DNA of 64,000 bases from Candidatus Limnocylindrales bacterium (lineage in GTDB: Bacteria; Chloroflexota; Dormibacteria; CF-121): the NCBI GenBank assembly GCA_035632635.1, contig DASQGL010000074.1, forward strand, positions 4,601 through 68,600. Direction: 5' to 3'. Position numbers and translations under genes: made by a program. Below, piece by piece: positions 1,514 through 39,706 of this stretch (position 1 is the stretch's first letter; every line of letters starts with the position of its first letter). The notes beneath the pieces are model-generated. The model searched no databases and was not told the DNA's origin. It was given only the letters and a program-made list of their open reading frames with translations.

Positions 1514-2548
1514 ATGGCGAGACTCAGCTTCGGCGTCTGCTTCGCCCCGGACCCCCCGCCCTCGCGATGGGTGGATCTGACCAGGCTCGCCGAGCGGTGG
1601 GGCTTCGAATACGCCTGGCTGTTCGACTCACACGTCCTCTGGCACGAGGTCTATCCGATCTTCACCCTCATGGCGGCGGCGACGACCACCATCAAGATCG
1701 GCCCCTGCGTGACGAATCCCGCGACTCGAGATCCCACCGTGACCGCCAGCGTCATGGCGACCCTCAACGAGATCTCCCATGGCCGCATGGTGCTGGGCAT
1801 GGGGCGCGGCGACAGCGCCCAGCGCGTGCTCGGCCGCAAGCCGGTCCCGGTGGAGGACATGGAGGAGGATTGCCGGGTCATCCGCGCGCTCGCCCAGGGT
1901 CAGGAAGCGTCGGTCGACGGCCGGCCGGTCCGGATCAAGTGGGCCCACGGCGAGCTCCCGATCTGGGTGGCAGGCTACGGCCCCAAGGCGCTGCGTGCGG
2001 CGGGCCGGGTCGCGGACGGCGTGATCATCCAGCTCGCCGATCCGGCGATCATCCGCTGGTGCCTGCGGTTCGTTCGCGAAGGGGCGGAGGAGGCCGGGCG
2101 CGACTTCTCCTCGATCCAGGTGCAGGCGGCCGCCCCCGCCTTCATCGCCGACGATCTGCGCACGGCCCGTGAGCAGGTCCGCTGGTTTCCAGCGCTCGTC
2201 TCGAACCATGTGGTAGACCTGCTCAAGCGCTATGACCCGGGAGACCTGCCGGCCGCGCTCACCGACTACATCAAAGCGCGGGAGGACTACGACTACGATG
2301 AGCACGCGAAGCGGGGCGCCGCCCATGCGGAGTTCGTCCCGGACGACGTCGTCGATCGGTTCTGCGTGATCGGGAACGTGGCGCAAAGCCTCAACCGGGT
2401 CCAGGAACTGGTCGATGCGGGCGTGCACCAGTTCAACCTCTATCTGATGGTCGAGAACCCGCAATCCGTGATCGAGACCTACGGCCGGGAGATCATCCCG
2501 CACTTTCAGTCCCAGCTCGAATCGGCCGCGAGCTCAACCCGCGGCTAA
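1514..2548 (+). CDS. LLM-class (luciferase-like) F420-dependent oxidoreductase
   Basis: It is 344 aa. The N-terminal region (GFEYAWLFDSH...) and overall similarity match the luciferase-like monooxygenase / F420-dependent reductase family. Upstream lies an SD-like aggaggagg. Confidence 0.8.
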   Translation: MARLSFGVCFAPDPPPSRWVDLTRLAERWGFEYAWLFDSHVLWHEVYPIFTLMAAATTTIKIGPCVTNPATRDPTVTASVMATLNEISHGRMVLGMGRGDSAQRVLGRKPVPVEDMEEDCRVIRALAQGQEASVDGRPVRIKWAHGELPIWVAGYGPKALRAAGRVADGVIIQLADPAIIRWCLRFVREGAEEAGRDFSSIQVQAAAPAFIADDLRTAREQVRWFPALVSNHVVDLLKRYDPGDLPAALTDYIKAREDYDYDEHAKRGAAHAEFVPDDVVDRFCVIGNVAQSLNRVQELVDAGVHQFNLYLMVENPQSVIETYGREIIPHFQSQLESAASSTRG

Positions 2549-2566
2549 GAGAGGAGAGAAAAGGAT

Positions 2567-3412
2567 ATGGCGAAGATACGAGCCGCCCTGATCCAGGCTC
2601 ATGCGAACATGCCCAAGGAGGATGCGATCCGCAAACACGAGCAGCTGATCGGGAAGGCGGCGGCTGCGGGCGCCCAGATCACCTGCCTGCAGGAGATCTT
2701 TCACGGCCCCTATTTCTGCGCCGAGCAGGACCCGAAATGGTATGCGACGGCGGAGCGCGACGACGGTCCGACCGTCCGCCGCATGCAGGAGCTCGCCACA
2801 AAGCACAAGATGGCGCTGGTCGTTCCCTTCTACGAGGAGGCGCAGACCGGCGTCTACTACAACACGGCGATCCTGATCGAAAACGACGGTCGGGTGCTGG
2901 GCAAATATCGCAAGACCCATATCCCGCACGTGGGGCCGTGCTTCTGGGAGAAGTTCTACTTCAAGCCGGGCAACCTCGGCTACCCGGTCTGGGACACGTC
3001 GGTCGGCCGGATCGGAATCCTGATCTGCTACGACCGGCATTTTCCGGAGCCGGCCCGCGAACTGGGACTCAAGGGCGCCGAGCTCGTCTTCAACCCGTCG
3101 GCCACGGTCAAGTCGCTCTCCCGCTACCTCTGGGAGCTCGAACAGCCGGCCCATGCGGTCGCGAACGGCTACTTCATCGGGGCGATCAACCGGGTCGGCG
3201 TCGAGAAGCCGCTCAACGGCGCGGAGTTCTACGGTTCGAGCTACTTCTGCGACCCCCGGGGCCGCATCATCGCGAAAGCGTCGGAGACCGAAGACGAGGT
3301 GCTCGTCTGCGAGCTAGACCTCGACTTGATCCGCGAGGTCCGCAACACCTGGCAGTTCATGCGAGACCGGCGTCCAGAGACGTACCACGAGCTCGTGGAG
3401 CTGCTTCCATGA
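2567..3412 (+). CDS. beta-ureidopropionase / N-carbamoyl-amino-acid amidohydrolase (nitrilase superfamily)
   Basis: It is 281 aa and belongs to the CN-hydrolase family. The catalytic Cys lies in the ILICYD context, and the conserved Glu and Lys regions are present. Upstream lies an SD-like gagaggagag. Confidence 0.85.
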   Translation: MAKIRAALIQAHANMPKEDAIRKHEQLIGKAAAAGAQITCLQEIFHGPYFCAEQDPKWYATAERDDGPTVRRMQELATKHKMALVVPFYEEAQTGVYYNTAILIENDGRVLGKYRKTHIPHVGPCFWEKFYFKPGNLGYPVWDTSVGRIGILICYDRHFPEPARELGLKGAELVFNPSATVKSLSRYLWELEQPAHAVANGYFIGAINRVGVEKPLNGAEFYGSSYFCDPRGRIIAKASETEDEVLVCELDLDLIREVRNTWQFMRDRRPETYHELVELLP

Positions 3413-6256: not shown

Positions 6257-7587
6257 AAGAGGCGGCGCCGCACGTGCTGAGCGCCGAAGAGATCGTTGCC
6301 ATGTGCCGGCGCTACACCCTCTACGACTGGATGGCGCAGTCGGCCGCCGACCCGATCCCGGTCGACCACGCGAAGGGTGTCTACTTCTACACCCCGGACG
6401 GCAAGCGTTACATCGACTTCAACAGTCAGCTGATGAGCGTGAATGCTGGCCACGGCCATCCGCGGATCATCGAGGCCATCACGCGCCAGGCAGAGAAGCT
6501 CGCCTTCGCCAATCCATTTATGGCGCACGAGCCGAGGGCGTTGCTCGGGCGCAAGCTCGTCGAGCTGCTGCCCGGCGACATCGACAAGGTGTTCTTCACC
6601 CTTGGCGGCGCGGAGGCGAACGAGAACGCGGTGAAGATCGCGCGGGCGGTTACCGGACGGCAGAAGATTGTGTCGCGGTACCGTTCCTACCACGGCGCGA
6701 CCGGCGCCGGCATCGGCATGACCGGCGACCCGCGCCGCTGGCCCAACGAGCTGGGGCTCTCCGGCTTCGTCCACGTCCTCGATCCCTACCACGGTCCGCA
6801 GCGTGAGGTCGACTCCACCGAAGACGCGCTCCGCTACCTGGACGAGACCATCCAGCTCGAGGGACCGCAGACGATCGCCGCCTTCGTCCTGGAAACGGTC
6901 ACCGGTACCAACGGCATCCTGATCCCTCCAGACGGCTACCTCCAGGGGGTTCGCGAACTCTGCGACCGGTACGGCATCTTGATGGTCTGCGACGAGGTGA
7001 TGGCCGGTTTCGGCCGCACCGGCGAATGGTTCGCGGTCGACCACTGGAAGGTCGTCCCAGACATCCTGACCATGGCCAAAGGCTTGACGAGCAGCGCCGT
7101 TCCGCTGGGTGCCGTGGGTATGCGCCGGCACGTCGCCGAGTACTTCGATACCCACACCTTCTGGGGCGGCCTCACCTACAACAGCCACCCGCTCGGCTGT
7201 GCGGCGGCGCTGGGCACGATCCAGGCCTATGAAGAGGACGACATGATCGGCAACGCCAGGCGGATGGGGGTCGTCATGCGACGCCACCACCTGGAGTTGC
7301 AGCGCAAGCACCCCTGCGTCGGGCTGGTCCGCAACATCGGACTGTTCGGGATTCTCGAGCTGGTGCGTAACCGCACGACGATGGAGCCGCTCGCGCCGTT
7401 CAACGGGACGTCCCCGGAGATGAAGGCGATCGCGGCTCACCTGCGCGAGCATGGCCTCTACACCTTCCTGCGCTGGCACACGATCATGACCAACCCGCCG
7501 CTCTGCATCACCGAAGCCGAGCTGGCCGAGGGGTTTGCCATTCTGGATTCGGCGCTCAGCATCGGCGACCAGGCTGTGACATCGTGA
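6247..7587 (+). CDS. class-III (omega) aminotransferase, beta-alanine/beta-aminoisobutyrate--pyruvate type
   Basis: ATG 6247 overlaps the mmsA 3' end. The protein is 447 aa. It is a PLP fold-type I class III aminotransferase, with the DEVMAGFGRTG region. Confidence 0.85.
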   Translation: MAVKEAAPHVLSAEEIVAMCRRYTLYDWMAQSAADPIPVDHAKGVYFYTPDGKRYIDFNSQLMSVNAGHGHPRIIEAITRQAEKLAFANPFMAHEPRALLGRKLVELLPGDIDKVFFTLGGAEANENAVKIARAVTGRQKIVSRYRSYHGATGAGIGMTGDPRRWPNELGLSGFVHVLDPYHGPQREVDSTEDALRYLDETIQLEGPQTIAAFVLETVTGTNGILIPPDGYLQGVRELCDRYGILMVCDEVMAGFGRTGEWFAVDHWKVVPDILTMAKGLTSSAVPLGAVGMRRHVAEYFDTHTFWGGLTYNSHPLGCAAALGTIQAYEEDDMIGNARRMGVVMRRHHLELQRKHPCVGLVRNIGLFGILELVRNRTTMEPLAPFNGTSPEMKAIAAHLREHGLYTFLRWHTIMTNPPLCITEAELAEGFAILDSALSIGDQAVTS

Positions 7588-7964
7588 CCAGGACGACCGA
7601 GGCGGAGGTGCAGGCTTTCCTGAAGGATTACCCGCCCGAGATTCGTGCGGTCGCCTTGCGCGCCCGCCAGCTGCTGGCCACCGAGATGCCGGACGCGGTG
7701 GAGCAGGTGAAGCCGGGCTGGAAGGTGATGCAGTACGGCGCGAATGCCTCGATGCAAGCGCAGCTCATCGTCATCCAGCCCCAGGCGAACTGGGTCAACC
7801 TCGGATTCGCACACGGGTCGGAGCTCCCGGATCCGGTGGGGCTGCTCGAGGGGACCGGCAAGGGCATCCGTCACGTCAAGCTGCGCACCGTCAAAGACGT
7901 CGAGCGCGAGCCGGTGCGGGCGCTGGTGAAGGCCGAAGTCCGCATCGCGGAGGCCGGCCGCTGA
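7584..7964 (+). CDS. DUF1801 domain protein (YdhG-like)
   Basis: A GTG start at 7584 overlaps the upstream stop (GTGA). The 126-aa sequence is typical of DUF1801. Confidence 0.6.
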   Translation: MTRTTEAEVQAFLKDYPPEIRAVALRARQLLATEMPDAVEQVKPGWKVMQYGANASMQAQLIVIQPQANWVNLGFAHGSELPDPVGLLEGTGKGIRHVKLRTVKDVEREPVRALVKAEVRIAEAGR

Positions 7965-21437: not shown

Positions 21438-22352
21438 TCAGGCGAGCAGGGCCAGCTGGGCCGGCTCGGGAGCCGGCTCGATGCGGAAAGCGCGGCGGTC
21501 CCGGATGCCGCGCTCGCGGCGCAGCCGCCCAACGGTCGCCTTGAGAGGGTCGCTGACGGCGTTCGGCGCGTAGGCGGCGGCCCCGGGGAACAGCTGCGCG
21601 TAGCGGGCGAGCAGGTGCGGATACTCGCGCGTGAGGAATTCCAGGTAGTGCTCCTTCGTCCCCGGCTTCAGGTAGACGACATTGGCCCAGACGAAGCACG
21701 CTCCGGCCTCGGCGGCCGCCGCGACCGTCCGATCGAGCTGGGCGGGCGCATCGCTCAGTCCCGGGAGGATGGGCGCCATCCCGACTCCCGCCTCGATGCC
21801 GGCATCGACCAGCCGCGTGAGGATGCGAAGCCTGGTGCGGGGTGGTGGCGTCGTCGGCTCGGTCTTCGCCCAGACCTCCTCATCGACCGTGGGGACGCTG
21901 AAGGTCACCGTCAGCCTGGCTCGCGAGGCGAGCTGCGTGAGCACGTCGAGATCGCGGACGATCATGGTGCCCTTCGTGATCAGGGAGACCGGGGTCCTGA
22001 AGTCGGAGAGCGCCTGAAGGCAGTGGCGGCTGAGGCGGTACCGGCCCTCCGCCGGCTGGTAGGGGTCGGTCGCGGTGCCGAAGGCGATCGTCTCCCGCTT
22101 CCAGGCCCGGCTCGACAGCTCACGTCTGAGGACCTGGGCGACGTTCACCTTGACGCCGATCCGGCTGGAGAACCCCTGTCCCGGATCCCGGTCGGCCAGC
22201 CTGGCGTGCGCGCGGGCGAAGCAGTACACGCAGCTGTGCACGCAGCCCTGATAGGGATTCAGCGACCAGCGGAATCCCATGTGCGCAACCCGGTTCAGGG
22301 CGCTCTTGCAGTCGATCTCGAAGTACTCGCGTTCGGGCATGGGGTGTTCCAT
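21438..22352 (-). CDS. radical SAM protein, SplB/DNA-photolyase-like (Rv2578c-like)
   Basis: It has a CxxxCxxC cluster (CVHSCVYC) near the N-terminus. The protein is ~300 aa. Confidence 0.75.
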   Translation of the reverse strand: MEHPMPEREYFEIDCKSALNRVAHMGFRWSLNPYQGCVHSCVYCFARAHARLADRDPGQGFSSRIGVKVNVAQVLRRELSSRAWKRETIAFGTATDPYQPAEGRYRLSRHCLQALSDFRTPVSLITKGTMIVRDLDVLTQLASRARLTVTFSVPTVDEEVWAKTEPTTPPPRTRLRILTRLVDAGIEAGVGMAPILPGLSDAPAQLDRTVAAAAEAGACFVWANVVYLKPGTKEHYLEFLTREYPHLLARYAQLFPGAAAYAPNAVSDPLKATVGRLRRERGIRDRRAFRIEPAPEPAQLALLA

Positions 22353-22379
22353 GATAGAACAAACGTTCGTAGCCGGGGG

Positions 22380-32159: not shown

Positions 32160-32261
32160 CGGCTCCGAAGCGCCGGCCCGTCCCCTCGGGCGTCCCCTGA
32201 CTCCGCGGCGGCGATAGACTCGGCCTGTCTTCCCGTTGCACTCACGACAAGGGGGTTATCG

Positions 32262-32912
32262 ATGCGCTTCTATCCGGACCTGTACGGCCGTCGCTTTGCC
32301 TGGATGCTCGGCGACCTGGTGGCGCTCATCTGGACCGCGCTGTGGGTCGATGCCGGCCATATCGTGGAGCGCCTCTTCAGCCGGCTGGACGTGCTCGCGA
32401 CCGGCGTCATCAACGCTGGGCGCACGTTTGACGGCTGGATTCGCTCCTTCGAGAAAGCCGTGCCGTCCGGCGTGCCCTACCTCTCCGACTTCCTCCGCCA
32501 GGTCGCGAATGCGCTCAAGACCCACTCCGGCGATCCGCTGATCACGGCCGGCCAGACCGGCTACCAGGCGATCCACACGGTCGCTCTCCTGCTCGGGGTC
32601 CTGACCGCCGCCGTCCCGATCGCGATCCTCCTGATCGTCTACCTGCCCCGGCGGATCCGCCTCGTCTACGACATGCAGGGCGTGCACGTCACCCTGCGCC
32701 GGGCGCTCGCCCGGCCCGAGGTCGCCCCGCAGATGCTCGAGATCCTGGCCGGCCGGGCGATCTACACCATGCCCTACCACGAGCTCTTGCGCTACTCGCA
32801 CAACCCGGCGGAGGACTGGTACGCGAGGCGGTTCGACCGCCTGGCGCAGGCCGAGATGGCCCGCCACGGCCTGTCCGTTCAGCGGTATTTCGGCGACCGC
32901 CCGGCGGCCTAG
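32262..32912 (+). CDS. hypothetical membrane protein
   Basis: An SD AAGGGGG lies 6 nt upstream of ATG 32262. Two TM helices are present. I preferred it over the overlapping antisense ORF because of the SD and the hydrophobic helices. Confidence 0.5.
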   Translation: MRFYPDLYGRRFAWMLGDLVALIWTALWVDAGHIVERLFSRLDVLATGVINAGRTFDGWIRSFEKAVPSGVPYLSDFLRQVANALKTHSGDPLITAGQTGYQAIHTVALLLGVLTAAVPIAILLIVYLPRRIRLVYDMQGVHVTLRRALARPEVAPQMLEILAGRAIYTMPYHELLRYSHNPAEDWYARRFDRLAQAEMARHGLSVQRYFGDRPAA

Positions 32913-32959
32913 CGGCCTGGGGGCCTCCCGGGAAAGCAAGAAAGGCCCGACCCGGCCGG

Positions 32960-34315
32960 TTGCTTTCTACTGTGATCAACCGGCCAGACATGCCGGTCGG
33001 GCAGCCGCAGCCATACGCGGTGCAGCCCCCGTCGGCCCCTGCCGCCCCGGACTTCTTTCCCTCGGCCCCGGGCCGGGTGGAGGACTGCGGGCTGCCGGTG
33101 GCGCGCCTGGCCGACCTGTTGCTCAAGCACCTGTACTTCAAATCGCCGCTTTCGGCCAAGGACTGGGCGGCCATGGTCCGGCTACCCTACGCCACCATCG
33201 TCCCGGCGATCCAGAGCCTGGTCGAGCAGGGCTGGGCCCAGACCATCGGGCGGATGGGTCCCGCGGGCAACGGCGCCGAATTCGGGGAGTCGCTCGGATA
33301 CCTGATCAACGACCCGGGGCGGCAGCGCGCCCGGGACGTCCTGACCCGGGACCACTATGTCGGCCCGGCGCCGGTGACCTACGCGCAGTACGAGGAATCC
33401 GTGCGGGCGCAGGTCAGCCAGGTCGACGTGACCGCCGCCTGGCTCACCCGTGCCCTTCAGCATCTCACCCTCAGTCCCGAGATCCTGGTCCAGCTCGGGC
33501 CTCCGATCAACGCCCGCGCGCCGCTCTTCCTCTACGGCGCGCCCGGGAACGGCAAGACGAGCATCGCGGAGGCCTGTGCCGATCTGCTGGGAGCGCCGGT
33601 CTTCATCCCTTACGCGATCGACATCGAGGGCCAGATCATGCGCCTGTACGATCCGCTTCACCACGTCCAGATCAAGCGCGACATGCCGCCTCAGCTGGAC
33701 ACCCGGTGGGTGCTGGTCAAACGACCCTTCGTGAAGGTCGGAGGCGAGCTCACCCTCGCGCAGCTCTCGCCATCCTTCGATGCCCTGATGCGCTACTACG
33801 AAGCCCCCATCCACCTCAAGGCGAACCTGGGCATCTTCCTGCTTGACGACTTCGGCCGCCAGGACGCGCCGCCGCGCTCCCTGCTGAACCGGTTGATCGT
33901 GGCCCTGGAGCGGCGGGTCGACTACCTGAACCTGTCCGGCGCCGGGATGGCCGTGGCCGCGCCGTTCGAGGCCATGGTCGTCTTCAGCACCAACCTGGAG
34001 CCGGCCGATCTCGTGGACGAGGCCTTCCTGCGCCGGGTGCGGTACAAGATCCACGTCCCCGACCCCTCGGCGGAGGAGTTCCGCCAGATCTTCGAGCGGG
34101 CCTGCCGTGAATCCGAGATCGTCTTCAGCGAGGCCGGATACAACTACGTCGTCGACCGCTATTACAAGCCGTTCAAACGGCCGTTTCGTGGCTGCCAGCC
34201 GCGGGACATCCTGCAGCAGCTCGACGAGGCTGCCTACTTCCTGCAGCGCCCGCCGCTGCTGGAAAAGGACCTGATCGACCTGGCCTGCCGTTCCTACTTC
34301 GTCCAGACCGGCTAG
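32960..34315 (+). CDS. AAA+ ATPase with unique ~190-aa N-terminal domain (function unknown)
   Basis: It has a Walker A LYGAPGNGKTS and a Walker B IFLLDDFG. It has a sensor-1 VVFSTN and an Arg-rich FLRRVRYKIHV. The start is ambiguous (TTG 32960, GTG 32972 or ATG 32990). Confidence 0.7.
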   Translation: MLSTVINRPDMPVGQPQPYAVQPPSAPAAPDFFPSAPGRVEDCGLPVARLADLLLKHLYFKSPLSAKDWAAMVRLPYATIVPAIQSLVEQGWAQTIGRMGPAGNGAEFGESLGYLINDPGRQRARDVLTRDHYVGPAPVTYAQYEESVRAQVSQVDVTAAWLTRALQHLTLSPEILVQLGPPINARAPLFLYGAPGNGKTSIAEACADLLGAPVFIPYAIDIEGQIMRLYDPLHHVQIKRDMPPQLDTRWVLVKRPFVKVGGELTLAQLSPSFDALMRYYEAPIHLKANLGIFLLDDFGRQDAPPRSLLNRLIVALERRVDYLNLSGAGMAVAAPFEAMVVFSTNLEPADLVDEAFLRRVRYKIHVPDPSAEEFRQIFERACRESEIVFSEAGYNYVVDRYYKPFKRPFRGCQPRDILQQLDEAAYFLQRPPLLEKDLIDLACRSYFVQTG

Positions 34316-34336: not shown

Positions 34337-34726
34337 TCAGCGGTGATTGTAGAACTCGATCTGCCAGCGCCACTCCGACCGGTCCGCCGCGTGCCACCAG
34401 GCTTTGAGGATGCCGGCCTCACCACCGGGAAGCAGCACCACCCGCCCGATGTCGGCGTCGGCCGGCCACCCGTCCTCCAGGCCGATGGCCTGACCCCGAC
34501 GGGTCAGGTAGCTCATCGGCCCTGGCTCGCCGCGCTTGAGGTTCGAGCCCCTGGCGACCACGTCGCCACGGGCGCCGAAGACCGTGACATCGAGGGAGGC
34601 GGGCGCCGCGTGGACGAGCAGGCGATCCCCCGCATCCTGGGCGTTGATCCGGCACCGCGCGAACGAAAGACCGCTGGCGCCGGGTCCCGGCATCCAGAGA
34701 TCCCAGACCTCGATGGAGCCGTCCAT
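34337..34726 (-). CDS. hypothetical protein (129 aa)
   Basis: The ORF converges on the end of the AAA+ gene. It is probably beta-rich and Trp-rich at its C-terminus (WWHAADRSEWRWQIEFY). No family recognised. Confidence 0.4.
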   Translation of the reverse strand: MDGSIEVWDLWMPGPGASGLSFARCRINAQDAGDRLLVHAAPASLDVTVFGARGDVVARGSNLKRGEPGPMSYLTRRGQAIGLEDGWPADADIGRVVLLPGGEAGILKAWWHAADRSEWRWQIEFYNHR

Positions 34727-34811: not shown

Positions 34812-35117
34812 TCAGGTTCGGATCTGCTTGATCAAGCGATCCTGAGCTTCGAAGATGATGTCCTGGATGTCCAGCGCATTGGCCCCGGACGCGTCCATCC
34901 GGTAGGCGAGCTGCTGGTCGACCGCCTCGACGATCTGCCGCAGCCGCGCCTGCATGTCGAGCGGGACTTCCATCACGTCCGTTTCGAGCAAGCGCTCGAC
35001 TTGCTCCAGCGCCTGGTAGAGCGAGTACCGAAGCGTGCGACGGGCGGACTCTTCCCGGCGCAGCTGGTTGAACCATTGATCCTGCTGGTTGATCATCCGG
35101 AGCGTGTTTCTGAGCAT
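34812..35117 (-). CDS. hypothetical protein (~101 aa, Gln/Glu/Leu-rich)
   Basis: ATG 35117 is preceded by the SD AGGGGGAG (5-nt spacer). Its composition is atypical for GC-artifact ORFs. A near-consensus promoter lies ~150 nt upstream. Confidence 0.45.
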   Translation of the reverse strand: MLRNTLRMINQQDQWFNQLRREESARRTLRYSLYQALEQVERLLETDVMEVPLDMQARLRQIVEAVDQQLAYRMDASGANALDIQDIIFEAQDRLIKQIRT

Positions 35118-35272
35118 CAGTTCTCCCCCTGGCTCACGCAAGCGCGACAACCGTGCGCTCGGCCGGCGTCTGCCGCCGCCGGTAAACCTTTTCGTTCCGG
35201 ATCCTTGGCTGGCAACCTCCCCTAGATGTTGGGCCCGACGCGTTTGTGGGGTACTAGATGTAGATTGGCCGC

Positions 35273-35301
35273 ATTCTATCGCTAGCCTTTGGGCCTGTCA
35301 A
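35273..35301 (-). promoter_or_regulatory. near-consensus sigma70-type promoter (TTGACA-17-TAGAAT) reading toward the hypothetical gene at 35117
   Basis: On the minus strand, TTGACA lies at 35301-35296 and TAGAAT at 35278-35273, with exactly a 17-nt spacer. It sits in an AT-richer intergenic region. Confidence 0.5.
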
Positions 35302-35497
35302 GGCGGACCCGGCGCTCCGCTGCGTCGTCCCCGCTGGAAGAGCCGTCCCTGACGTCGCCTCAAGCAGCAGAGCCATAAAATACGCGGGCCTCTTGAGGTC
35401 GTAAAGCCGGAACATTTGTTGCCCATTCTTTTCCACCGGCGACTAACAGGACGTGCATAACTGCTGTGGAAAAGCAGCGGATATCAGGACCGCGACG

Positions 35498-35818
35498 TCA
35501 TGCGGGGCGCCCTTCGTACTTCGCAAGCGTGTCATCGAGCGCGGTCGAGAGGTCCACCTCGAGGCTGTTCGCGAGCAGAACGACGATGAAAAGGACATCA
35601 CCGAGCTCATCAGCAATCGAGCGCGGCGTGTCCTTCGAGGTGCGTGGCTTGTCACCGAAGCGGTGGTTGAGCTCTCGACCCAGCTCTCCCACTTCTTCGA
35701 CCAGCCGCACGTACTGGGAGAGCGCCGACCAGTAGCGGCCGCGCGACCGGATCCAGGCATCCAGCTCGCGCTGCAGGTCGGAAAGCGTCCGAGGACTAGG
35801 CCGATTGGCGGGGGGCAT
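35498..35818 (-). CDS. MazG-like nucleotide pyrophosphohydrolase domain protein
   Basis: It has EEVGELGRE and DELGDVLF (the EExxE/DxxxD-type MazG helices). Its ATG overlaps the ligD TGA. Confidence 0.7.
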   Translation of the reverse strand: MPPANRPSPRTLSDLQRELDAWIRSRGRYWSALSQYVRLVEEVGELGRELNHRFGDKPRTSKDTPRSIADELGDVLFIVVLLANSLEVDLSTALDDTLAKYEGRPA

Positions 35819-38514
35819 CACAGCTTGGGCAGACGCTGATGCAAGGTGACGGCCTCACGGAACAGGTCGCCAACCTGCAAGAGGCGCTCCCCGATGGTCC
35901 GGATCGTCCACCGGTTCGGCGTCAGCGAGGGATCATCGAGCTCGGCCCAGCTAACCGGGGTCGAAACCGGCGCACCTGGGGCCGGGCGGACGGAGTATGG
36001 ACCGGCCAGCGTCTTGTTGATGACGTTCTGGGTGTAGTCGATCCGAATCTTGCCCGTGCGGCGGCTGACCTGCCAGTCTTCCGTCACGCGTTCGGGCATC
36101 AGCTGCGCGACCGTGCGGGCGAGGGCTTCGACGAATCCGCGGCTCTGTTCGTGCGTGTAGCGTCGCTCGATCGGAATGTAGATGTGCAGCCCGCTCTGGC
36201 CGGTCGTCTTGGCCACCGCCTTCAGCTCGAGGTGGTTGAGGGCGTCCTTGAGGACTTTGGCCAGCTCGACGACCTCCCGGAACGTAGCGCCCTCGGCAGG
36301 GTCGAGATCGATCACCGCCCAGTCGGGATACTCCGGCTTGTCCACGCGCGAGTACCAGGGATGCAGGTCGATTACCGCGTGGTTGGCCAGCCAGGCAAGG
36401 GTCGCCGTCTCCTCGATCAGGATCCAGTCCTTCTCGCTCTTCTGATCCTTGTATCGAAAGGTCGGAATCCAGTCGGGCGCGTAGGCCGGCTTGTCCTTCT
36501 GCCAGAAACTCTTGCCGTGGATGCCGTCCGGGTGCGGGTTCATCGAGAGTGGCCGGTCGCGGTAGTAGGGAATCAGAATGGACGCTACCTCGACGTAGTA
36601 GCGGATCAGGTCGCGCTTGCGCAGCGAATCCTCGGGGAAGAGCACCTTGTCCAGGTTGGTCAGGTGGACCGACCGGCCCGCGACCTCCCAGTCTCCCTGG
36701 TTGGGCAGCGCGTCGAGCGCGGCCAGCTCATCGACCGTGGCCGGCCTGATGCCCGAGCCTTTGCCGATCCGCGCCGCCGCCTGCATGAGCGCGCTGCCGG
36801 CCTGGTCTCGCCGGCCGGGCGCGGCCCGCGGGCTCAGCACCACCGACCGTCGGGCGGTGTGGGCCCGGCGCGTCCTGGCCGTTCCCCGGGTGGGGCGGGT
36901 TCGGCTCGCCGGCTTTGCTGCAGGCTGCGCGGTCTCGGCCTGCCGGCGCTGGCGGTCCGTGTCCTGTGGTTGCTCACGCCGGACGCTCCTGGGATCGACA
37001 TCGTCGCGCAAGCCGAGGAACACCGGCTGACGCATGAGACCATCCTTCGTCCACTCGGCGAACTTGACCTCCGCCACGAGCTGGGGCTTGACCCAGGTCG
37101 GCTTCTCGTTCGTCCGGGGCGGCTCGCCGGAAAACGGCGACTTCTTGACGCGCAGCTTCTGCAGCTGCTGGTACACGGTTTCGAGGCTTCGCTCGTCGAA
37201 GCCGCCGCCGACGTGGCCGGTGTAGACGAGGTTGCCATCGTCGTACACGCCGACGAGGAGCGCGCCAAAGTATTTGCGACTGTGGCGCGGTGCGGTGTAG
37301 CCACCGATCACCACCTCCTGCTGGGCAACCGTCTTGATCTTCAGCCAGCTGCTGCTGCGCACCCCGGGCAGGTAGGGACTGTCGCGGAGCTTGGCGACGA
37401 TGCCCTCGAGCCGCTTGGCCCTGGCCGCCTGGTAGAAAGCCTTGCCCTGCCCGATGATGTGGTCCGAGTAGCGCACCAGCGGCGATGGGCGCAGCCCGTT
37501 CTGCAGCAGGCGTTTTCGGTCCTCGAGCGGGACCTTGAAGAGGCGGCGGCCGTCCGCGTAGACGATGTCGAAGACCACGTATTGCAGGGTGACCGGCTGA
37601 TTGCCGCGGTTCTGCAGGAGCTGGAACGAGGGACGGCCCTCCTCGTCGAGCGCCACGACCTCCCCGTCGAGGACGGCCTCCTTCAGGCTGAGGAGATCCG
37701 GCAGGCCCTTGAGCTGTGGGTACTCGGCGTCGACCGACCGACCGCGGCGGGTCTGCAGGCTCACCTTCCCATCCCGGACGAAGCTGATCAGGCGGATCCC
37801 ATCCCATTTCACCTCGAAGAGCCAGCGGTCGTCGTCAAACGGCTGCTCGACCAGGCTCGCCTTCATCGGATCGAGCGAGGTCGGCATCGGACCCGGCTCC
37901 GCCTGCGCCAGGTCGATCAGGCCCCCCTGGCCCTCCGCTCTCGAGCTCGACCACACGGCGTCCTTGCCTTGCTCGATCTCCTCCTTCGTCCGCCCGGTCT
38001 TGACCGAGGTCCGAAACGCCTCGATGTCGAAGTTGGGATCGGCGGCCTCGTCGCGCTTCTTGATCAGCAGCCAGTCCTTCTCCGAACGCGTTCGCACCAG
38101 GGCGAACCGGCCGCGCAGCCGCTCGCCGTGCAAGCGAAACTTGATCTCGCCCCGGCGGAGCGACTCCGCGGGCGTGGACTCCTCGAGCTCGTAGGTGCCC
38201 CAGTCCCAGACCATCACGGTCCCCCCGCCGTACTCGCCTTTGGGAATCAGGCCTTCGAAGTCGTAGTAGCTCACCGGGTGATCCTCGACGTGAGCGGCGA
38301 GCCGCCGCTCGGCCGGATTCAAGGTCGGCCCCTTGGGGATCGCCCAGGAGACGAGCACGCCGTCCATCTCCAGGCGGAAGTCGTAGTGGAGGCGCGTGGC
38401 CCAGTGTTTCTGCACCACGAACCGGTTGTGACCGGTTGGCTCGGGCGTGCCCTTCGGCTCCGGAGTCCTGGAGAAATCGCGCTTCCGCTGATACTCCGCC
38501 AGCGATCGAGGCAT
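35818..38514 (-). CDS. ligD: multidomain ATP-dependent DNA ligase D (phosphoesterase-ligase-polymerase order)
   Basis: The N-terminal 3'-phosphoesterase domain has FVVQKHWATRLHYDFRLE. The central ligase adenylation domain has EVKWDG (KxDG). The C-terminal domain is a LigD primase-polymerase. The likely start is MPRSLAEY at 38514, although the ORF extends to 38661. Confidence 0.85.
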   Translation of the reverse strand: MPRSLAEYQRKRDFSRTPEPKGTPEPTGHNRFVVQKHWATRLHYDFRLEMDGVLVSWAIPKGPTLNPAERRLAAHVEDHPVSYYDFEGLIPKGEYGGGTVMVWDWGTYELEESTPAESLRRGEIKFRLHGERLRGRFALVRTRSEKDWLLIKKRDEAADPNFDIEAFRTSVKTGRTKEEIEQGKDAVWSSSRAEGQGGLIDLAQAEPGPMPTSLDPMKASLVEQPFDDDRWLFEVKWDGIRLISFVRDGKVSLQTRRGRSVDAEYPQLKGLPDLLSLKEAVLDGEVVALDEEGRPSFQLLQNRGNQPVTLQYVVFDIVYADGRRLFKVPLEDRKRLLQNGLRPSPLVRYSDHIIGQGKAFYQAARAKRLEGIVAKLRDSPYLPGVRSSSWLKIKTVAQQEVVIGGYTAPRHSRKYFGALLVGVYDDGNLVYTGHVGGGFDERSLETVYQQLQKLRVKKSPFSGEPPRTNEKPTWVKPQLVAEVKFAEWTKDGLMRQPVFLGLRDDVDPRSVRREQPQDTDRQRRQAETAQPAAKPASRTRPTRGTARTRRAHTARRSVVLSPRAAPGRRDQAGSALMQAAARIGKGSGIRPATVDELAALDALPNQGDWEVAGRSVHLTNLDKVLFPEDSLRKRDLIRYYVEVASILIPYYRDRPLSMNPHPDGIHGKSFWQKDKPAYAPDWIPTFRYKDQKSEKDWILIEETATLAWLANHAVIDLHPWYSRVDKPEYPDWAVIDLDPAEGATFREVVELAKVLKDALNHLELKAVAKTTGQSGLHIYIPIERRYTHEQSRGFVEALARTVAQLMPERVTEDWQVSRRTGKIRIDYTQNVINKTLAGPYSVRPAPGAPVSTPVSWAELDDPSLTPNRWTIRTIGERLLQVGDLFREAVTLHQRLPKL

Positions 38515-38542
38515 CCCATTTGCAGTTTGGCAGAATGGCCGG

Positions 38543-39706
38543 ATGCCGACGGCATTGAAGGAGGCGGTCGAACGTCGGGTAAAGGACCTGGTCGGCAGGC
38601 GCCGGCACTTCCACGCCGAGCCCGAGCTGTCCTTCCAGGAGCGCGAGACGGCCCGGGTCATTGCCGACCACCTGGGTCAATGGGGATTCGAGGTGCAGAC
38701 CGGCGTCGCCTCGACCGGGGTCGTCGGCTCACTCCGCGGTGGGCGACCGGGCAAGGGCGTCCTGGTCCGCGCCGACATGGATGGCCTCCCGCTCGAGGAA
38801 CGATCCGAGCTGCCCTTTCGGTCCATTCATCGCGGCGTCATGCAGGCCTGCGGCCACGACGTGCACATGGCCATCGCGCTGACCCTGGCCGAGCTGCTGG
38901 CCGAGCGGCGTGCGGAGCTTCCCGGGCTCGTCCGCTTCGCCTTCCAGCCGGCGGAGGAGGTTGCCGGCGGAGCCAAACCGATGGTCGAGGCAGGGGTGCT
39001 CGACGGCATCGACCGGGTGATCGGGCTCCACGTCTGGGCCGGGCTTGCGACCGGGCTCATCTGTGCTCGCCCGGGGCCGCTGATGGCGAGCGCGGATCAG
39101 TTCTCCCTGACCATCACCGGCAAAGGCGGCCACGGGGCGCTGCCCCACCTGACCGTCGATGCCGTCGTGATCGCGGCCCAGGTGATCACCGCGCTGCAGA
39201 CGCTGCGCAGCCGCGAGACGCCTCCGGCGGCGCCCATCGTCGTCACGCTCGGCAGCATCCACGGCGGAACCGCGCACAACATCATCGCCGGCGAGGTCGT
39301 GATCGAAGGCACGCTGCGCACGTTCGACTCCACGCTCCGGCAGCGGTTGCTGGGCCGGATCCAGGAGCTCGCCCAGGCGATCGCTTCGGGGATGGGCGGG
39401 GCTGCCACCTTCAGGCACCTCTCCGGGACCCCGCCGGTCGTCAACGACGCGGCGATGGCCGGGCTGGTGGCTGAGGCGGCGGAGGTTGTGGGAGCCGAGA
39501 ATGTCGTGTCGTTCGAGCCGTTGATGGTCGGCGAGGACTTCGCCTATTTCCTCGAGCAGCGTCCGGGATGCTTCTTCCTCCTGGGAGGGGCGCCGCCCGG
39601 CGGGCCGCGCGTCCACCACACGGCGGACTTCGCCGTCGACGAGGCCTGTTTGCCGATCGGTCTCGAGGTGCTCGGCGAGTCGGTGCTCCGAATGCTGAGC
39701 GACTAG
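38543..39706 (+). CDS. M20D-family amidohydrolase (N-acyl-amino acid amidohydrolase / hippurate hydrolase-like)
   Basis: It has metal-binding His/Asp/Glu motifs (ACGHD, FQPAEE). It is divergent from ligD across a 28-nt gap. Confidence 0.8.
   Translation: MPTALKEAVERRVKDLVGRRRHFHAEPELSFQERETARVIADHLGQWGFEVQTGVASTGVVGSLRGGRPGKGVLVRADMDGLPLEERSELPFRSIHRGVMQACGHDVHMAIALTLAELLAERRAELPGLVRFAFQPAEEVAGGAKPMVEAGVLDGIDRVIGLHVWAGLATGLICARPGPLMASADQFSLTITGKGGHGALPHLTVDAVVIAAQVITALQTLRSRETPPAAPIVVTLGSIHGGTAHNIIAGEVVIEGTLRTFDSTLRQRLLGRIQELAQAIASGMGGAATFRHLSGTPPVVNDAAMAGLVAEAAEVVGAENVVSFEPLMVGEDFAYFLEQRPGCFFLLGGAPPGGPRVHHTADFAVDEACLPIGLEVLGESVLRMLSD

Follow-up and report, generated by a model that had tools for sequence, protein, structure and literature searches.

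The window analysed here, a 64-kb stretch of a Candidatus Limnocylindrales MAG, belongs to a clade of Limnocylindria-like uncultured soil Chloroflexota. On its minus strand lies a gene for a three-domain DNA ligase D, followed directly by a gene for a small MazG-type NTP pyrophosphohydrolase and then by two further genes downstream (Table 1). By Pfam, the neighbours are an M20 peptidase, a DUF7712 protein and an AAA ATPase. The GC content of the ligD-mazG region does not depart strongly from that of the rest of the window, and a search of the whole window against Rfam at the gathering threshold returned no matches.

Table 1. Features of the ligD-mazG locus, in positions of the 64-kb window
Feature	Position	Strand	Description	Basis
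Candidate promoter element ATTCTGCCAAACT	38524..38536	-	9 nt upstream of the LigD ATG	Alignment of LigD upstream regions
ligD	35818..38514	-	898 aa, PE-Lig-Pol order	Pfam, NCBIfam, PDB alignments (1vs0, 5dmu, 2iru, 2fao, 3n9b)
LigD 3'-phosphoesterase domain	38047..38502	-	aa 5-156	TIGR02777, 217 bits vs cut-off 144
LigD ATP-dependent ligase domain	36979..37860	-	aa 219-512, motif I EVKWDG	TIGR02779, 318 bits vs 228; 1vs0 alignment
Lig-Pol linker of LigD	36685..36972	-	aa 515-610, basic Arg/Pro/Ala-rich low-complexity	Translation
LigD primase-polymerase domain	35857..36669	-	aa 616-886, IDLDP catalytic motif	TIGR02778, 248 bits vs 215; five solved PolDoms
ligD/mazG junction GTGATG	35816..35821	-		Sequence; relatives' junctions
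mazG	35498..35821	-	Predicted YpjD-type single-domain MazG NTP pyrophosphohydrolase, 106/107 aa	PF03819, PDB matches, invariant columns
Sigma-70-type promoter of next gene, TTGACA-17-TAGAAT	35273..35301	-		Scan, 11/12 positions matched
p101	34812..35117	-	101-aa lineage-specific helical protein, own transcription unit downstream of mazG	tblastn, 87-96% identity
DUF7712 protein	34337..34726	-	Downstream of p101	PF24822, E 2e-59

The LigD translation begins with MPRSLAEY, and Pfam (PF13298, PF01068, PF04679 and PF21686) recognises in it LigD_N/PE at aa 35-141 (E 1e-44), DNA_ligase_A_M plus A_C at aa 221-505 and LigD_Prim-Pol at aa 633-885 (E 7e-87). All four NCBIfam models (TIGR02776, TIGR02777, TIGR02778 and TIGR02779) score above their cut-offs, with 545 bits against 373 for TIGR02776. 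A phosphoesterase, an ATP-dependent ligase and a primase-polymerase are combined in one polypeptide, as expected of a DNA ligase D. The catalytic motifs of such an enzyme are also present: the KxDG lysine of ligase motif I lies in EVKWDG, opposite EGKWDG of the Mtb LigD ligase domain (1vs0), and the acidic DxD of the polymerase lies in IDLDP, opposite FDLDP, VDLDP and LDLDP of five solved LigD polymerase domains, with which the SG..GLH and DY/W..N stretches are conserved as well. Residues of the phosphoesterase domain were judged by domain score alone. The original prediction of a PE-Lig-Pol enzyme is thus borne out, with three domains that appear intact by Pfam, NCBIfam and alignment to solved structures. 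The protein resembles the three-domain LigD of the Pseudomonas type (PRK05972, TIGR02776) in domain order, in having all three domains above curated cut-offs and in its visible catalytic motifs. Unlike that enzyme, it has no adjacent Ku, carries a long basic low-complexity linker between ligase and polymerase, and is followed immediately downstream by mazG. Its length varies among relatives from 861 to 908 aa.

The product of mazG scores 44.3 bits against PF03819 (gathering score 22) and matches the solved YpjD and BA-MazG structures over its full length (5ie9, E 2e-24, query 11-105; 2gta, E 5e-23, query 9-105). The metal site EExxE...ExxD is represented by E42, E43, E46, E72 and D75 and is invariant in 19 sequences that are 39-70% identical to the window protein; Y30, R49, N52 and K58 are likewise invariant and are found in Bacillus family members too. 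By these matches, and with some 45-47% identity to Bacillus-type members, the protein is an ordinary member and orthologue of the widespread YpjD family. The MazG-type NTP pyrophosphohydrolase originally proposed is therefore supported by a PF03819 score above the gathering score and an intact metal site, its activity being predicted from sequence. With B. subtilis YpjD (2gta) and B. anthracis MazG (5ie9) it shares a single MazG domain of about 100-120 aa and the EExxE...ExxD motif; the B. anthracis protein is the 'Bacillus-conserved MazG' of Kim and Hong 2016, as cited in PMC10014863. In the Bacillales the gene heads a ypjD-dapB-mgsA-bshB1-bshA-cca-birA cluster, whereas here mazG comes last in a ligD operon. 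The E. coli enzyme shares the MazG fold family of its catalytic domain (PF03819), but is a tandem-domain protein encoded downstream of mazEF; the window protein has one domain and 107 aa, falls far below the models for the tandem type (TIGR00444, 22.4 bits vs 148.3; PRK09562, 31.6 vs 208), and has no MazE or MazF family reported among its neighbours. M. tuberculosis MazG (Rv1021) is a housecleaning NTP-PPase acting on 5-OH-dCTP (PMC10014863; PMC12848934). It has in common with the window protein the superfamily and the presumed removal of mutagenic nucleotides in stressed, non-growing cells; it differs in being larger, in belonging to another subfamily and in having no genetic linkage to ligD or ku, and the papers we found report no functional tie between it and NHEJ.

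The two genes meet in the sequence ...CTG TGA TG CCC. A GTG start for MazG (35821-35819) overlaps the LigD TGA (35820-35818) by 4 nt, and an alternative ATG start (35818-35816) overlaps it by 1 nt, so the stop/start overlap originally proposed is read directly from the sequence with either codon. The ATG start fits the NCBI protein (P0001), which has 106 aa. There is no Shine-Dalgarno-like GGAGG just upstream of the MazG start in the window. Compact genomes of high GC content often have overlapping stop and start codons, and finding a 4-nt overlap in one genome is nothing unusual. However, across the 22 related loci, at least 12 of which are distinct, the distance from the LigD stop to the MazG start always lies between -4 and +7 nt, and this constancy exceeds chance. 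The geometry differs among lineages, with GTGA, TGATG and gaps of 2-7 nt all represented.

The element upstream of ligD, ATTCTGCCAAACT, does not vary across relatives except at position 7 (G/C), and this holds also for loci that lack the divergent M20 gene. We regard it as a candidate promoter (possibly an extended -10) that would give rise to a leaderless or short-leader ligD-mazG transcript. On the other side, 13 of 14 loci searched carry the sigma-70-type promoter of the next gene, whose -35 never varies and whose -10 does. As this gene has a separate promoter, the ligD-mazG unit ends before it.

Within the clade, divergence among the loci is considerable (dS 0.8-2.7) and omega lies between 0.08 and 0.43; by this pattern of substitution MazG is under purifying selection. 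LigD lies within 10 kb of a YpjD-type mazG in all five species representatives of the clade. The coupling is not unique to the source genome: all 22 clade loci retain it, with invariant catalytic residues. Given a junction held within -4 to +7 nt at dS values of about 1 or more, we take the operon to be real and conserved under purifying selection. Around this stable pair other genes come and go: one locus (L007) lacks the M20 gene and DUF7712, another (L018) lacks DUF7712, and two (L008 and L012) carry insertions. Across the clade, synteny is kept throughout the Fer4/CBS-LytB block, divergently transcribed genes included. An apparent second, very divergent Pol-MazG-p101-DUF7712 module in L102 would have meant deep conservation, but the two halves of that locus are inverted copies of each other, 94.8% identical and differing by many indels, and it was discarded as a fold-back assembly artefact.

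Outside the clade the pairing did not recur in the loci sampled. In four sister-clade loci (L098, L103, L106 and L107) MazG is 58-59% identical to that of the window, and LigD is absent beside it in all four. In three of them (L098, L103 and L106) neighbours known from the window can be recognised: CBS and Fer4/Pyr_redox to one side, p101 and LytB to the other. Because mazG stands there without an adjacent LigD among shared neighbours, it seems either that LigD took up its position just upstream of MazG in the window clade, or that the sister clade has lost it. The one sister-clade mazG checked (L098) has its own Shine-Dalgarno sequence, GGAGGAGG. A MazG-centred profile scan of contigs covered 75 YpjD-type loci of other phyla, and not one of these has LigD within 10 kb; there the family sits in housekeeping contexts such as the Brevibacillus ypjD-dapB-mgsA-bshB1-bshA-cca-birA cluster. 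When 1.84 billion representatives were scanned with MazG by HMMER, 901 matched, and the best 150 include no LigD-sized fusion. The YpjD-type family is carried by 17 of 72,556 plasmids, and the genera of these 17 include none of the ten most frequent Ku-bearing plasmid genera. We found no paper in which MazG or a pyrophosphohydrolase is described as a partner of LigD.

As originally noted, Ku is missing from the window: an HMM built from six Ku proteins, run with --max on six-frame ORFs of at least 40 aa, gave a best E of 2.8. Nor was Ku found in 14 related loci totalling 126 kb. The Mtb Ku probe was validated by tblastn, in which it matched 710 plasmids, many of them annotated 'Ku protein'. 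The arrangement of a two-component NHEJ system with Ku within 10 kb of ligD is thus absent from the neighbourhood, which is the extent these searches covered. Ku lies within 10 kb of LigD in 75% of genomes with conventional NHEJ and further away in about 25% (Sharda et al., bioRxiv 10.1101/869602), so that its absence nearby is not remarkable. In the same survey, 90% of LigD-only genomes were without POL and PE (bioRxiv 10.1101/869602).

Based on these results, we consider it probable (roughly 60%) that ligD and a YpjD-type mazG form a two-gene operon only in one Limnocylindria-like Chloroflexota clade, MazG being a housekeeping orthologue whose benefit is most likely generic. In this arrangement mazG would be transcribed from the ligD promoter and MazG translated by termination-reinitiation after the LigD stop, so that MazG would be made whenever LigD is made. 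As the lineage's orthologue of housekeeping YpjD, it would convert (d)NTPs to (d)NMPs and PPi, presumably favouring non-canonical nucleotides. The likeliest benefit would be nucleotide-pool sanitation, co-expressed with a repair polymerase/ligase that works in non-growing cells, and MazG would not be a dedicated, general NHEJ accessory. Since the coupled operon is found in one clade only, it is better seen as a local gene arrangement than as a new general part of bacterial end-joining. The link could still be more specific than 'generic', because a junction kept tight despite saturated synonymous sites, together with the apparent loss of MazG initiation signals, is what selection for co-expression would be expected to leave. 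The wider neighbourhood is also syntenic, however, and phylogenetic inertia is therefore not separable from selection.

A dedicated role is the main alternative, and one that we think unlikely without dismissing it. Here MazG would be made stoichiometrically with LigD and would clean or shape the nucleotide supply of an error-prone polymerase; its targets might be 8-oxo-(r/d)GTP or dUTP, it might be a physical partner of LigD, and the route might not need Ku. LigD polymerases are known to prefer rNTPs and to have low fidelity, which is consistent with such a role. The MazG catalytic site is intact, no clade locus has Ku next to the pair, and in all 22 loci the junction has stayed closed although dS is about 1 or more and there have been local rearrangements, while the Shine-Dalgarno sequence seen in the sister-clade orthologue of L098 is missing from the window gene. 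These observations have to be set against the restriction of the pairing to one clade, its absence from the other-phyla loci, the fusion search and the sister clade, the plasmid distribution, the silence of the literature, and a MazG sequence in which nothing is distinct from housekeeping YpjD. The new accessory of bacterial NHEJ proposed in the original prediction is, on the same grounds, possible but doubtful. A stronger form, in which the clade recruited MazG as a true LigD partner, co-translated and perhaps LigD-bound, removing oxidised or otherwise mutagenic (r/d)NTPs where the LigD polymerase fills in, strikes us as distinctly improbable; it would make the pair a fidelity module that serves end-healing or gap repair while soil bacteria are dormant, possibly with no Ku adjacent, or none at all.

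The opposite possibility is that the adjacency is incidental, a single rearrangement perpetuated by inertia, with mazG perhaps expressed independently from signals in the 3' end of ligD and the pairing functionally meaningless. The synteny of the whole Fer4/CBS-LytB block, the general frequency of overlapping codons and a sister-clade MazG that functions without an adjacent LigD are all consistent with this. We nonetheless find it rather unlikely, as the junction varies and yet never opens up, no clade locus has gained an intergenic region or a visible Shine-Dalgarno, and the genes flanking the pair are in flux. MazG-like proteins are also known from phages and, in E. coli, from a position downstream of mazEF, and the window protein has a weak PHROG match to 'MazG-like pyrophosphatase' (E 1e-4), which might suggest a mazEFG-like toxin-antitoxin system or an anti-phage or phage-derived nucleotide-depletion module. 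This is hardly credible given the single-domain architecture, the absence of any PADLOC match for LigD, MazG, p101 or DUF7712, the Pfam families of the neighbours and the unexceptional GC content.

Were MazG to serve LigD, bacterial end-joining would have its first assigned enzyme of the nucleotide pool, and there would be a hint of how an error-prone, ribonucleotide-using repair polymerase avoids damaged nucleotides in non-growing cells. We favour the more modest reading of a housekeeping gene drawn into a repair operon in one abundant, uncultured soil lineage. The locus also invites caution, as a conserved overlapping gene pair may resemble a functional module; it was the sampling of the sister clade and other phyla that showed the pairing to be local.

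The small protein encoded downstream of the operon, p101, gave no significant match in a fold search against the PDB, and its leader showed no convincing covariation (RNAalifold on a MAFFT alignment). Its AF2 model is well defined (pLDDT 94.5), and its 81 homologues all fall within this lineage.

The gene pair has the anatomy that the original prediction had described, a three-domain DNA ligase D (LigD) whose stop codon overlaps the start of a MazG-like NTP pyrophosphohydrolase gene, as Pfam and NCBIfam searches and the junction sequence confirm. The plausible ATG within the 947-aa LigD open reading frame gives a protein of 898 aa (N-terminus MPRSLAEY), in which a 3'-phosphoesterase is followed by an ATP-dependent ligase (adenylation and OB) and a primase-polymerase, and which exceeds the curated NCBIfam cut-offs of the DNA ligase D model and of each of the three domain models. 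Alignment shows that the motif I lysine is kept (EVKWDG, against EGKWDG in the ligase-domain structure of M. tuberculosis LigD), as is the catalytic DLDP when compared with five solved LigD polymerase domains. Ligase and polymerase are joined by a basic, low-complexity linker of ~95 aa (aa 515-610), rich in Arg, Pro, Ala and Thr. The relatives' LigD proteins are 861-908 aa long, a variation probably owing to this linker.

The 107-aa open reading frame after ligD scores 44.3 bits against Pfam MazG (gathering score 22), and NCBI's annotation of the contig gives it 106 aa, consistent with the ATG start. The same protein, at 100% identity, occurs in a metagenome-assembled genome of Candidatus Limnocylindrales (Chloroflexota). 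By sequence it classifies as a single-domain MazG of the YpjD type, matching over its full length the solved structures of the B. anthracis 'Bacillus-conserved MazG' (5ie9, E 2e-24) and of B. subtilis YpjD (2gta, E 5e-23), whereas its score falls far under the cut-offs for the E. coli-type tandem-domain MazG. The metal-binding residues E42, E43, E46, E72 and D75, together with Y30, R49, N52 and K58, are invariant in an alignment of proteins 39-70% identical to that of the window, which makes it very probable that the enzyme is active. One protein of the representative library (P0145, 1591 aa) is 38% identical to the window MazG and carries 10 separate MazG-like stretches, which would make it a MazG polyprotein of many repeats.

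Coordinates of the features discussed, in the window unless another locus is named
Feature	Locus	Coordinates	Strand
LigD open reading frame	window	35818-38661	-
ligD from its plausible ATG (38514)	window	35818-38514	-
LigD linker	window	36685-36972	-
ligD ATG (38514, -) and M20 peptidase ATG (38543, +)	window	38512-38545	
mazG	window	35498-35821	-
Inverted repeat, two arms	window	35465-35473 and 35429-35437	-
Cheo/LexA-like box	window	35409-35422	-
p101 leader	window	35115-35272	-
p101 gene (101 aa, downstream of mazG)	window	34812-35117	-
AAA-type ATPase and protein without family match	window	32160-34315	+
Exact palindrome	window	22357-22368	
Radical SAM gene	window	21438-22352	-
p101 gene	L001 (clade)	6742-7047	
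Cheo/LexA-like box	L098 (sister clade)	about 7720-7733	
MazG/HhH-GPD pair	L098 (sister clade)	1193-2114	
MazG/HhH-GPD pair	L103 (sister clade)	2357-3185	
MazG/HhH-GPD pair	L106 (sister clade)	7001-7946	
MazG/HhH-GPD pair	L107 (sister clade)	1046-2024	

The original prediction would have been refuted by a coupling unique to this genome combined with a MazG inactive on nucleotides; we found the coupling in all 22 clade loci counted, the window included (at least 12 different sequences). LigD lies directly upstream of MazG in all six relatives looked up (MazG 67-73% identical to the window's), in two further relatives reached via other queries, and in all five GTDB species representatives that carry a MazG of this subfamily. 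These assemblies bear different NCBI labels (Limnocylindrales, Chloroflexi, Dormibacteraeota, Eisenbacteria), but their common synteny, and the 87-96% identity that one neighbouring protein keeps among them, indicate a single lineage. Pairwise dS values of the clade MazG genes of 0.8-2.7, at or near saturation, with omega of 0.08-0.43, show that the lineages are old and that MazG is constrained. The genes flanking the pair do change, one locus (L007) lacking both the M20 peptidase and the DUF7712 gene, another (L018) lacking DUF7712, and two more (L008 and L012) carrying additional genes inserted around ligD-mazG. However, synteny across the clade also extends over the broader block, Fer4/CBS genes through LytB, so that the pairing could conceivably have been retained by inertia.

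The most telling comparison is with a sister clade of four loci, whose MazG proteins (58-59% identical to the window's) form the nearest cluster outside the clade. Three of these have recognisable window neighbours: Cytochrome-C-assembly, Fer4/Pyr_redox and CBS genes on one side in L106, and p101 and LytB on the other in L098 and L103, with Cys/Met and PALP genes also in L098. The fourth, the short contig L107, has in common with the others only the local arrangement of MazG, HhH-GPD, SDR and luciferase-like genes. LigD, the M20 peptidase and DUF7712 are absent from all four loci, so MazG needs no adjacent LigD. Instead, mazG lies tail-to-tail with an HhH-GPD (Nth/MutY-type) DNA glycosylase gene in all four, the 3' ends overlapping by ~120-170 nt, and an Arg/Pro-rich C-terminal tail of MazG is encoded within the overlap. 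The L098 mazG has its own ribosome-binding site, GGAGGAGG, and a GTG start. Two histories would fit: LigD came to lie immediately ahead of MazG in the window clade, or the sister clade lost it.

Further afield, a genome scan gave 75 other YpjD-type loci (38-52% identity to the window MazG) from Bacillota, Gemmatimonadota, Armatimonadota, Planctomycetota, Myxococcota, Patescibacteria and Ktedonobacteraceae. In none of them did the flanks, up to 10 kb on each side, contain a LigD domain, and none matched the Ku profile. HMMER, run without filters over 1.84 billion representative proteins, returned 901 family members, with no LigD-sized MazG fusion among the best 150. The family occurs on 17 of 72,556 plasmids, in genera outside the ten most frequent Ku-bearing plasmid genera, and the Brevibacillus orthologue is the first gene of a ypjD-dapB-mgsA-bshB1-bshA-cca-birA cluster, a housekeeping setting. 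The pairing is thus conserved inside the clade and not outside it. The proposal of a new accessory of bacterial NHEJ is supported in part only, in that the operon exists and is kept, though within a single clade and not as a general NHEJ accessory. As our literature search found no paper linking LigD with MazG or any pyrophosphohydrolase, the arrangement is undescribed; each of the two genes is nonetheless an ordinary representative of a known family.

At the junction (CTG TGA TG CCC), the LigD TGA shares 4 nt with a GTG start of MazG and 1 nt with an ATG start, and no Shine-Dalgarno-like sequence precedes the MazG start in the window. Across the clade the distance from stop to start takes four forms, -4 (GTGA), -1 (TGATG), +2 to +4, and +6 or +7 nt, and the lack of space for separate MazG initiation signals is kept. 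The ligD and divergent M20 peptidase ATGs are 28 nt apart, a spacing identical in relatives, and between them sits an invariant ATTCTG(G/C)CAAACT, which in the window is 9 nt ahead of the LigD start codon and is kept where the M20 gene is absent. This spacing, with the motif in between, suggests that both transcripts are leaderless or have a very short leader. We infer that ligD and mazG share one transcript, which may start at this motif, and that MazG would be translated by termination-reinitiation, making a nucleotide-pool sanitiser obligatorily co-expressed with LigD. A preference for rNTPs and low fidelity are established properties of the LigD repair polymerase, and such a sanitiser would make sense beside it; the data point to nothing more specific than co-expression. 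The unit ends before the gene for p101, a 101-aa protein predicted to be helical, since that gene has its own promoter (TTGACA-17-TAGAAT). A search of 14 loci located this promoter in 13, among them L098, whose -10 is weaker. Directly after the MazG stop lies an inverted repeat (TTTTCCACA ... GGTGGAAAA, arms ~27 nt apart), kept across the clade and followed by no T-tract terminator, which could be an operator or a 3' end structure of the ligD-mazG transcript.

The absence of Ku from the window was likewise upheld. Our Ku HMM was built from six sequences, M. tuberculosis Ku (validated by tblastn matches to 710 plasmids, many annotated 'Ku protein') and five plasmid Ku genes. With all filters off it found nothing among six-frame open reading frames of at least 40 aa in the window (best E 2.8), nor in 126 kb of related loci. 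According to Sharda et al. (bioRxiv 10.1101/869602), 75% of conventional-NHEJ genomes carry Ku no more than 10 kb from LigD, and POL and PE domains are missing from 90% of 'LigD-only' genomes. A three-domain LigD with no Ku nearby is thus unremarkable. A Ku gene is probably present elsewhere in the source genome.

The p101 protein has no match in Pfam, NCBIfam, PADLOC or PHROG, and its 81 homologues, all annotated hypothetical, are confined to this lineage. It is 87-96% identical across loci whose MazG proteins are only 65-73% identical. The AF2 model predicts a confident helical bundle (pLDDT 94.5), for which a PDB fold search gave no significant match (best E 0.8). Upstream of p101 lies a Cheo/LexA-like box, GCAACAAATGTTCC (GAAC-N4-GTTC with one mismatch), present in 10 of 10 aligned clade loci with a single base difference in L009, and a promoter-like T[TG]GACG-17-TAnnnT begins 4 nt after it. 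The box recurs in L098, where MazG is 6 kb away, and is not found upstream of ligD; p101 may therefore be SOS-regulated, judging from this sequence element. The window has a single exact GAAC-N4-GTTC, the perfect palindrome GAACAAACGTTC, and 4 nt separate it from the ATG of the gene downstream, a radical SAM gene of the Rv2578c/PA0069 family. In other bacteria this family is part of LexA regulons, which supports the idea of the Cheo-type box as the SOS box of the source organism. Between the TTGACA-17-TAGAAT promoter and the p101 gene, the leader of ~150 nt holds near-invariant blocks (CCTATATCT, CCCCAnATnTAGGGGGAGGTA, CCAAGG and a hairpin CCGGCG-GCGGCAGA-CGCCGG) and a second hairpin whose sequence differs among loci with self-complementarity kept. 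It may be a structured cis-regulatory RNA; Rfam gave no hit, and there was little covariation when a MAFFT alignment was folded with RNAalifold.

An apparently duplicated module in L102 (JGI 3300024330 Ga0137417_1504820) was rejected as a fold-back assembly artefact: its two halves repeat each other in inverted orientation at 94.8% identity, and the many indels between them yield frameshifted 'paralogues' of Pol, MazG, p101 and DUF7712. Throughout the clade, the ligD-mazG-p101-DUF7712 block is adjoined by a 451-aa AAA-type ATPase, of which only the P-loop segments match known families, and by a protein without family match of up to 250 aa, called as 218 aa in relatives.
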